Positions 1 through 24,007 of a DNA stretch of 24,007 nucleotides are shown here, piece after piece (position 1 is the stretch's first letter; each line of letters opens with the position of its first letter). This DNA is from Oligoflexus sp. (lineage in GTDB: Bacteria > Bdellovibrionota_B > Oligoflexia > Oligoflexales > Oligoflexaceae). The stretch covers positions 1 through 24,007 of the forward strand of contig JBGSTX010000085.1 of assembly GCA_041736305.1 (NCBI GenBank), given 5' to 3'. Made by a program: the position numbers and the translations under genes. The notes beneath the pieces are model-generated. The model was not told the origin of the DNA and searched no databases. It saw only the letters and a list, made by a program, of their open reading frames with translations.

Positions 1-136
1 CTCTTTTAAGAACTGCGATATCATTCAAGCATTTGATGGGTATATGTATGCTTAAGATTATCTCCGATCTGGGAGCAAGATGGCTCCCTATTCCTCCACG
101 CCCTAAAGGACGTGGTTTCCAAGGGAGCAAGAACTG
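1..136 (+). mobile_element. 3' terminal part of an IS200/IS605-superfamily IscB element
   Basis: iscB-like C-terminus; hairpin GGGAGC-AAGATG-GCTCCC (71-88); subterminal hairpin in TTCCT-CCACGCCCTAAAGGACGTGG-TTTCC (stem 96-115); then ...GAACTG|ATGA. The exact boundary at 136 is inferred. Confidence 0.8.
2..55 (+). CDS. iscB: 3' end (last 17 codons) of an RNA-guided endonuclease IscB, truncated by the window edge
   Basis: Frame 2 reads SFKNCDIIQAFDGYMYA*, matching the typical IscB C-terminus (S.K.C..[LI]Q..DGY.Y). It is followed by an IS200/IS605 terminal hairpin, and an omega-RNA 5' end lies at the other window edge. Confidence 0.8.
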   Translation, partial: SFKNCDIIQAFDGYMYA

Positions 137-22670: not shown

Positions 22671-22809
22671 GAGTCTCCCGTAAACACAGCACGGTCGGTG
22701 TTGGGAGCATCGGAAAGATAGACGGCGTAGCACATGCTTTCAGAGGTATGGCCAGGAGTATGCAGTACGCGGAAGCGTAGAAAGACTGAAATTAAGCAGA
22801 TTCAGACTC
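22671..22809 (+). ncRNA. Candidate structured ncRNA of unassigned family
   Basis: Nested stems GAGT/ACTC, CTCCC/GGGAG, AACAC/GTGTT, ATC-GGAAA-GAT, TTTCAG/CTGAAA and TACGC-GGAA-GCGTA. Confidence 0.4.
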
Positions 22810-23037
22810 AGCCTTTTCGCACGCGATCACAGCGATAACCAACGAAAAACTTGCAAGTCTGGCCATAGAGATGGATGAGCACTTTTTCGCATGGGTTTGA
22901 ATCCGTCTTTACAAGACGAGAGCAAAGGAATAGATCATCGTTAAATACCGCGCCCTCGAAGAGGCAGGCCCCTATGAATATCATATCGCCTTTAGAAGAC
23001 ATCTCTCGGCGTGGTCCTACCCGCAAAGGAGAAAACG

Positions 23038-23733
23038 ATGCGATCATTCAGCTTGGTATCTCTTGGCTCCGTCTCACCTGCCCATGTGCTTCTGCTTGGA
23101 TTAGCGCTAAACGCCTGCGGCTCCAGTGATACTGAGGACACTCAGCTCATGGCTCTCAGCCCACGAGCGATTGGCACATCCAGCAGTCAAACCCCTAGTT
23201 CGGGCATCTGTGATGGGATTGACTTTGGCTCCTTCGATTACGACTCTGTGAGCGATACCGAGATCAGCGTCAATTCAAATTGGAAGGAAGAGAATACGGT
23301 TGGTATTTGGTTTTTTGCCAGCGCCGGGAGCGGCACTCATGAAGTCAACGGTGTGAACTATCGGACTAGTGGACTGCGGGTTCATCGTAGGGCCTTTAAA
23401 CAGGGCTGCCAAGCTTTTCTGAAAGCCAGAGATATCTTAGCCAGCCGTCCAGATCTGATTCCTTTAGTGAAAACAGTCAGCGCTTTCAGGGAAACCATCT
23501 CTCGAGGTAGCGCGAATATTAGCAGTCATGCCTGGGGCCTAGCCATCGACATCAATAGCCAAGACTATCCATATGGTGTCGCAAACTCGGATCCGAACTC
23601 CGCAAACGCCATTCTCTGGCGCGAAGTATTCAGCAAAGCCGGTTTCCGTTGGGGTAATGACTTTCCGCAGGTTGGATCCAACGCGGATCCAATGCACTTC
23701 GAAATTCACGTAAAGAAGACCACCCAGCCTTAA
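23038..23733 (+). CDS. M15 family (D-Ala-D-Ala carboxypeptidase-like) metallopeptidase, probable lipoprotein
   Basis: RBS AAAGGAG before ATG 23038, lipobox-like LNAC, SSHAWGLAIDIN, GFRWG.DF, DPMHFE. Confidence 0.88.
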   Translation: MRSFSLVSLGSVSPAHVLLLGLALNACGSSDTEDTQLMALSPRAIGTSSSQTPSSGICDGIDFGSFDYDSVSDTEISVNSNWKEENTVGIWFFASAGSGTHEVNGVNYRTSGLRVHRRAFKQGCQAFLKARDILASRPDLIPLVKTVSAFRETISRGSANISSHAWGLAIDINSQDYPYGVANSDPNSANAILWREVFSKAGFRWGNDFPQVGSNADPMHFEIHVKKTTQP

Positions 23734-23734
23734 G

Positions 23735-23775
23735 AAAAAAGTAGAGTCGCCTGATCCACACGAACTCTATTTTTT
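23735..23775 (+). terminator. Probable intrinsic terminator of the M15 gene
   Basis: AAAAAAGTAGAGTCG...CGAACTCTATTTTTT immediately after the stop. Confidence 0.6.
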
Positions 23776-23888
23776 GTAGTTAGGATTTAAGAGCACGCAC
23801 TCGCATGACGGGAATGCTTCAAGTTCAATAGTCCTGACTACTTATTCGGGGGCATCGCTTCTTCGCAAGCGACTTCGCATCTTGGTTC

Positions 23889-24007
23889 GTCAACTACCCG
23901 CCCCTAAAGGGGCGAGCTTGTAAGGAGAAATCCAAGCAGTCTTCACGTTGACCCGACTCAGCAAGGGATTCATATCCCGAGCTATGTTAGGAGCAAATAC
24001 ATAGGTA
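23889..24007 (+). ncRNA. 5' portion of a HEARO/omega-RNA scaffold (IscB guide RNA), truncated by the window edge
   Basis: GTCAAC (23889) pairs with GTTGAC (23947); CGCCCC-TAAA-GGGGCG then AGCTTG; ACCCGACTCAG; GGGAT-TCAT-ATCCC; CTATGT/ACATAG then GTA. The order matches known HEARO/omega scaffolds. Confidence 0.85.
23889..24007 (+). mobile_element. 5' terminal part of an IS200/IS605-superfamily IscB element
   Basis: Begins GTCAAC; subterminal hairpin shares the CCCTAAAGG core with the hairpin at 96-115. Confidence 0.8.

Follow-up and report, generated by a model that had tools for sequence, protein, structure and literature searches.

A 24,007-nt contig of the Oligoflexus genome G000 (5.02 Mb in 392 contigs, 92.7% complete) stops at its right end inside a sequence that resembles the scaffold of an omega-RNA. 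We asked what kind of element this sequence, which starts at position 23889, belongs to, and whether the host DNA just before it could serve as the guide of an IscB nuclease. The entire contig, C217, was analysed and is referred to here as the window; features in it lie on the plus strand unless another is given. Both ends of C217 fall in repeats, with a copy of the element at each, and this accounts for the break in the assembly.

An omega-RNA scaffold at the end of a multi-copy element

The original prediction had placed a HEARO-type scaffold at the motif GTCAAC at 23889. In a permissive cmscan of 23700-24007, the Rfam covariance model for HEARO (RF02033) matched 23889-24007 over model positions 1-103 of 211, with 29.7 bits and an E-value of 1.4e-4, the match being cut on its 3' side. 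The gathering score of this model is 83 bits, and no Rfam family reached its gathering score anywhere in the window; the window piece, which holds the first half of the model only, scores below it because the RNA runs past the end of the contig. Three further copies, 97-99% identical to the 119 nt of the window, were found at C12:6230 (99%), C363:13927 and C65:238 on the minus strand (97%). The C12 and C65 copies extend on to HEARO matches of 110.8 and 109.8 bits over the complete model (1-211), while the C363 copy reaches the end of its contig 126 nt into the element. In all four copies (C217, C12, C363 and C65) the homology starts exactly at GTCAAC, whereas the 40-nt 5' flanks are unrelated. 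Position 23889 is therefore a transposon end, and 23889-24007 hold the initial 119 nt of an omega-RNA that is truncated where the contig stops. The covariance model and the first base common to the four copies thus both bear out the predicted scaffold. From 23889 onward the window holds an ordinary multi-copy IscB transposon, a further member of a well-described family.

Across G000, an E-value limit of 0.001 gave 14 HEARO matches; 8 exceed the cut-off, and the 14 belong to at least three sequence families. Many of them lie at contig ends (C12, C65, C143, C178, C179, C310, C79, C80, C363 and C385), and HEARO-bearing elements appear to fragment the G000 assembly. A HEARO of the type found in C219 and C254 is also present in C59, with no IscB ORF behind it.

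Inside the first stem of the omega-RNA is a subterminal imperfect hairpin, CCCGCCCC-TAAA-GGGGCGAG (23897-23916), which is paired in the HEARO consensus. By analogy with the ISC elements described in PMC4810608, it is likely the binding site of a Y1 transposase.

A second structural claim fared less well. The pair CTATGT/ACATAG had been read as a pairing-preserving variant of the common CTACGT, but no such stem belongs to the structure of this family. The variable C/T corresponds to model position 77, which is unpaired in the Rfam consensus, and the GU that follows it starts a long-range helix, the other strand of which falls about 110 nt further downstream, past the contig end. Pairing was assessed in an alignment of 15 HEARO copies (A1), made up of seven from G000 (the window included), seven from same-genus genomes and the O. 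tunisiensis copy. The proposed 6-bp stem had 0 pairs with a compensatory change, and 80.0% of its cells were paired compared with 80.3% after shuffling; its fourth pair was unpaired in 13 of the 15 sequences, and relatives bearing CTACGT still carry ACATAG or ATATAG. For the long-range helix of the Rfam model, of which the window holds the 5' strand only, the same 15 copies gave 99.2% pairing with compensatory changes in 5/9 pairs, a score reached in 0/500 shuffles. HEARO is not mentioned in PMC2864571.

A predicted guide in the host DNA abutting the element

The guide of this omega-RNA had been proposed to be the host DNA directly 5' of the scaffold. The copies share sequence from 23889 on only, and at the level of sequence this core reading holds. 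We took the 16 host nucleotides next to the transposon end, CTTCGCATCTTGGTTC (23873-23888), as the predicted guide, a length derived from the 16-17 nt given for OgeuIscB in PMC9640706. The absence of a second match, first noted for the window, extends to the whole of the 5.02-Mb G000, in which CTTCGCATCTTGGTTC occurs once. When 2 mismatches were allowed, there were 3 sites in G000 as against 2 for a reversed control pattern, and 0/3 of them were followed by ATGA.

The upstream host gene (23011-23733), which encodes a Peptidase_M15_4 domain, points the same way as the omega-RNA, and this arrangement fits the upstream-gene orientation bias reported in Meers 2023 (bioRxiv 10.1101/2023.03.14.532601). 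Between the gene and the guide is a terminator-like succession of A-tract, hairpin and T-tract (23736-23775; fold -12.3 kcal/mol, z -2.85), located 100-150 nt upstream of the guide; a simple terminator scan did not flag it. A promoter scan of 22900-24007, which covered the sigma-70 consensus only, found no sigma-70-like promoter on the plus strand and one site on the minus strand, about the number expected from shuffles.

The terminator-like hairpin after the peptidase gene and the lack of a promoter-like site on the plus strand would suit a copy that is intact but silent, with an untranscribed guide and no function at this locus. We regard this as unlikely, though deserving of some weight. 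The scan speaks for sigma-70 consensus sites alone, and its single hit is at shuffle level; the IscB family as a whole, according to Meers 2023, depends on transcription entering from the host DNA upstream, and the peptidase gene is co-oriented; moreover, copies that are 97-100% alike argue for recent activity of the family. Judged from these identities, the IscB transposons of G000 have probably been active recently, and we favor the reading that the guide at 23873-23888 would be expressed from upstream.

In a related strain (run X6, about 98.5% identical), 22800-23742 is present with about 12 differences and the sequence diverges 9 nt past the peptidase stop codon. As the X6 strain leaves the window at 23742, the 146 nt that hold the guide (23742-23888) are strain-specific.

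The left end of the contig: iscB C-terminus, 3' end and ATGAA

Window positions 2-52 encode SFKNCDIIQAFDGYMYA, followed by a TAA stop codon at 53-55. By translation, these are the last 17 codons of iscB in a second copy of the element (2-55), as had been claimed of the protein C-terminus within 1-136. The frame is continued upstream in C109:2-724, which gives a 241-aa C-terminal half (P0001). This protein has an HNH domain (PF01844, 3.2e-12) and aligns to the solved structures of TbaIscB and HfmIscB through the HNH and the next RuvC segment. Of the IscB domain set, the G000 family thus shows the C-terminal 241 aa with the HNH and the region that follows it, the share of the window being 17 codons.

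The iscB stop codon is followed by the 3' non-coding end of the transposon (56-136), which is common to five copies and has a fold of -28.7 kcal/mol (z -1.94). Its hairpin at 96-115 (CCACGCC-CTAAA-GGACGTGG) resembles that at 23897-23916 at the other end of the element, as is expected if such subterminal hairpins are bound by the Y1 transposase, the role that ISC hairpins have in PMC4810608. Around the hairpin, a GGGAG in the last 15 nt of the element pairs with GCTCCC (83-89) to form a stem.

The five copies of the 3' end (C217, C255, C31, C30 and C109) are 98-100% identical and common up to GAACTGATGAA (window position 141), beyond which they diverge. All 5/5 junctions read ...CTG|ATGAA, and we predict that ATGAA (137-141) is the target-adjacent motif and target site; the gene at 137-1117 begins with its ATG. 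ATGA had been proposed as the motif of the left copy, and beyond the five junctions this agrees with two published cases. ISC transposons with a 5'-GTCA terminus insert at N|ATGA, as shown by empty sites in Kapitonov et al. (PMC4810608), and the wild-type motif that GstIscB needs is TTCAT, given as lying 5' of the left end and read as ATGAA on the iscB strand (Meers 2023); the HEARO is bounded there by the so-called transposon right end. ATGA also stands directly after a similar 3' end in six family members (the G000 family, L043, L044, L047, L048 and L049). The element has ends defined by 4 + 5 copies, with subterminal hairpins and no terminal inverted repeats, and these ends fit insertion at N|ATGA without target duplication: the five junctions read ATGAA, and the four 5' flanks share nothing.

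Complete relatives and the missing middle of the element

Using P0001 as a query, we found frames of 398-455 aa with 64-77% identity in eight same-genus genomes. All eight loci carry a full HEARO (114-145 bits), and the IscB frame lies directly downstream of it in 5/7 loci checked. The IscB locus of genome G006 is 100% identical, at the same coordinates, to that of Oligoflexus tunisiensis strain Shr3. The closest complete relative, L061:1319-2961 from O. tunisiensis, is 1,643 bp long and has both end types in one element. It starts with GTCAACTAC and is identical in 103/121 columns to the first 119 nt of the window's right end; its 3' end, compared with the 136 nt that end the element in the window, is identical in 109/148 alignment columns, the final ~84 nt being nearly identical, and is followed by ATGAAG. 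Since L061 holds both end types, the left and right ends of C217 represent the opposite ends of a single type of element, and they come from separate copies that point the same way.

The L061 element carries a HEARO of 130.9 bits and an open frame of 455 aa (P0002) with RRXRR (1.3e-67) and HNH domains. The best matches of P0002 among solved structures are IscBs (TbaIscB, 4.1e-42; OgeuIscB, 1.3e-29). In G000, tblastn with P0002 returned the C109 fragment (75% identity, residues 222-455) and distant paralogues in C219 and C254; the N-terminal half of the family's iscB was not found in G000 by tblastn with the C254 IscB, the C109 fragment or P0002. The smallest contig of G000 is 1,663 nt, and a collapsed internal repeat piece carrying the N-terminal half may have fallen below a length cut-off.

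The transposase gives a similar picture. Y1 transposase (PF01797) had four matches in G000, three of them clearly over the cut-off. All are fragments: C337:2942-3130, C300:8-112 and C53:11289-11372 lie at contig ends and the fourth contains stops, so that no intact Y1 (TnpA) gene was seen among the four. Because Y1 fragments lie at contig ends, elements that carry tnpA, too, are repetitive and have not been assembled.

Mini-elements without iscB, and the search for an empty site

G000 also contains a 402-nt mini-element without iscB, at C342:16766 on the minus strand (L004) and C371:29319 on the plus strand (L007). The two are 93% identical and consist of a full HEARO and the 3' end, bounded by GTCAAC and ATGAA; they are PATE-like, a kind known from Meers 2023. 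The C342 mini-element is located just upstream of a 266-aa host ORF. A contig path in runs X1 and X6 matches the window over 23905/23936-23965 and then continues in sequence unlike it; this path may represent an internally deleted variant of the element.

Could the 23889 copy itself be such a derivative, iscB-less or internally deleted, with both ends but no nuclease gene, and reliant on IscB supplied by other copies? The contig covers the first 119 nt of this copy and no more, the mini-elements coexist with it in the same genome, the X1/X6 path departs from the scaffold after 23965, and PATEs often encode omega-RNAs according to Meers 2023. Against this, the window keeps a regular scaffold to 24007, beyond the point of the branch; the final 16-17 codons of iscB, absent from elements of the C342/C371 type, are present in all five 3' junction contigs; and the counts of 5' and 3' ends are close (4 and 5). 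A deleted copy at 23889 is in our view rather improbable, and an intact iscB would be expected behind the scaffold. That the assembly created a false junction, or that the resemblance to HEARO arose by chance, is hardly credible: the match does score below the gathering value and the contig does end in a repeat, but a 2,984-nt Logan contig of X1 (possibly the source run, and so not independent) spans 22800-23918 with no differences, three copies 97-99% identical have the same first base, and two of these give full-length HEARO matches.

From the guide and the motif, the original prediction had derived an empty site, which should appear as an excision junction. No contig joining 23888 to an ATGAA or ATGA flank was found in four runs searched with 22800-24007, X7 and X8 yielding nothing usable, and in this respect the prediction found no match. 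The related strain X6 carries the element in another flank. The first 39 nt of the element, searched as exact and degenerate patterns, had 0 matches in metagenome contigs. In a synteny search for a partner contig, 13 same-genus genomes gave no match to the upstream peptidase protein at E<=1e-20. At the other end of the window, the monooxygenase homologues of relatives are only 44-63% identical, and for this reason the intergenic DNA of the relatives could not be aligned.

Proposed mechanism and comparison with known IscB systems

The anatomy of the locus comprises a match to the HEARO family, a boundary placed to the base, presence in several copies, ATGAA at the junctions of the opposite end and a C-terminal half of iscB. 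As a whole, it is very probably best explained by the right end of C217 being the omega-RNA end of an ISC insertion sequence with a guide and homing mechanism of the family type. The element from 23889 would be a non-autonomous ISC (an IscB-type IS200/IS605 element) of ~1.65 kb, judged by L061. Transcription running in from host DNA would yield an RNA that opens with the ~16-nt flank CTTCGCATCTTGGTTC and continues into the scaffold, and this RNA would be bound by IscB from the 23889 copy or a sister copy. The Y1 transposase TnpA, acting in trans, would excise the element as single-stranded DNA and leave a resealed site of guide target plus ATGAA; IscB would then cut this empty site, and recombination with the sister chromosome would restore the element. 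All four steps are modeled on the published biology of the family, as given in Meers 2023, PMC4810608 and PMC9640706.

The closest parallel in element structure is ISC1-1_MA of Microcystis aeruginosa (Kapitonov, Makarova, Koonin 2016, PMC4810608). Elements of this type share with the Oligoflexus family the 5'-GTCA terminus, the 3' end followed by ATGA, the subterminal imperfect hairpins, a multi-copy state with ~97% identity and a coding capacity limited to iscB, with no internal tnpA. The Oligoflexus family differs in host lineage, in a fifth base that is A in 5/5 junctions, in the want of a recovered empty site and in an element middle that is unassembled. GstIscB of Geobacillus stearothermophilus resembles it in having a HEARO bounded by the transposon end, a guide in the flank, a TTCAT motif that complements ATGAA, a TnpA in trans and related PATE-like elements; the GstIscB motif was tested experimentally, whereas the Oligoflexus element is known from its sequence (Meers 2023). 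The OgeuIscB-omega-RNA complex (PDB 7xht and 7utn; PMC9640706) has the same domain set as P0002 and a guide 5' of the scaffold, of which ~16-17 nt are used. The proteins themselves are only distantly related in sequence (phmmer 1.3e-29 and 1.4e-29 to 7xht and 7utn), and the motif reported for OgeuIscB is NNRR as opposed to ATGAA. As for the RNA, the family follows Rfam RF02033, the window over model positions 1-103 and the sister copies over 1-211 at ~110 bits, with a long-range helix that covaries.

IscB loci are known by the thousand. What this one adds is an IscB/omega-RNA family whose ends are placed exactly, whose natural guide can be read from the flank and whose motif is strongly implied to be ATGAA, in the little-studied Oligoflexus lineage; we found no literature naming Oligoflexus together with IscB. 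The one run that contained every sampled word of the flank is a hot-spring metagenome, from which G000 may derive. The description of the family is of use for annotation. As a lead for genome editing it is weak, given that the nuclease gene is half assembled and that the motif is the same as that of an already tested IscB. The label of an untested editor, applied in the original prediction, is plausible but not remarkable.

Insertion in front of start codons

The left-hand copy sits exactly before the ATG (137) of a gene for a luciferase-like monooxygenase (137-1117), and PF00296 matches the product from residue 1, at profile position 1. At 4/10 junctions the ATG opens an ORF of at least 117 aa. 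Such host start codons are independent support for the ATGA being host DNA. At further loci the ORFs encode an endonuclease V, TsaD, an EF-G-like GTPase, an epimerase and an ABC ATPase, with profile matches starting 4-28 residues from the N-terminus. Among 22 more distant loci, 13 had a downstream ORF (starting <=170 nt from the iscB stop and 80 aa or longer, with 50 aa sufficing where the ORF runs off the locus), and 9/13 of these ORFs start with ATGA. The distant loci are single copies in which the element ends are undefined, and their ATGA starts are only suggestive of landing on start codons.

A GGAG- or AGGA-like motif was seen by eye 4-10 nt before the ATG in ~12/16 junctions, relatives included. 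In the Oligoflexus element the GGGAG motif could be a ribosome-binding site supplied by the element, or could have a purely structural role. Tentatively, the ISC family might even be adapted to park on start codons, with the GGAG-like motif replacing the displaced ribosome-binding site, a possibility to which we give limited credence. We found no literature stating such an adaptation, and 'start codon' occurs 0 times in PMC4810608. If it were true, each copy would take as its guide the translation-initiation region of a host gene, and the expression of that gene would be coupled to the element.

One observation concerns the interior of the window. A 200-aa ORF at 12431-13033 matches the TIMP family (PF00965, 2.5e-10), a domain that is unusual for a bacterium.
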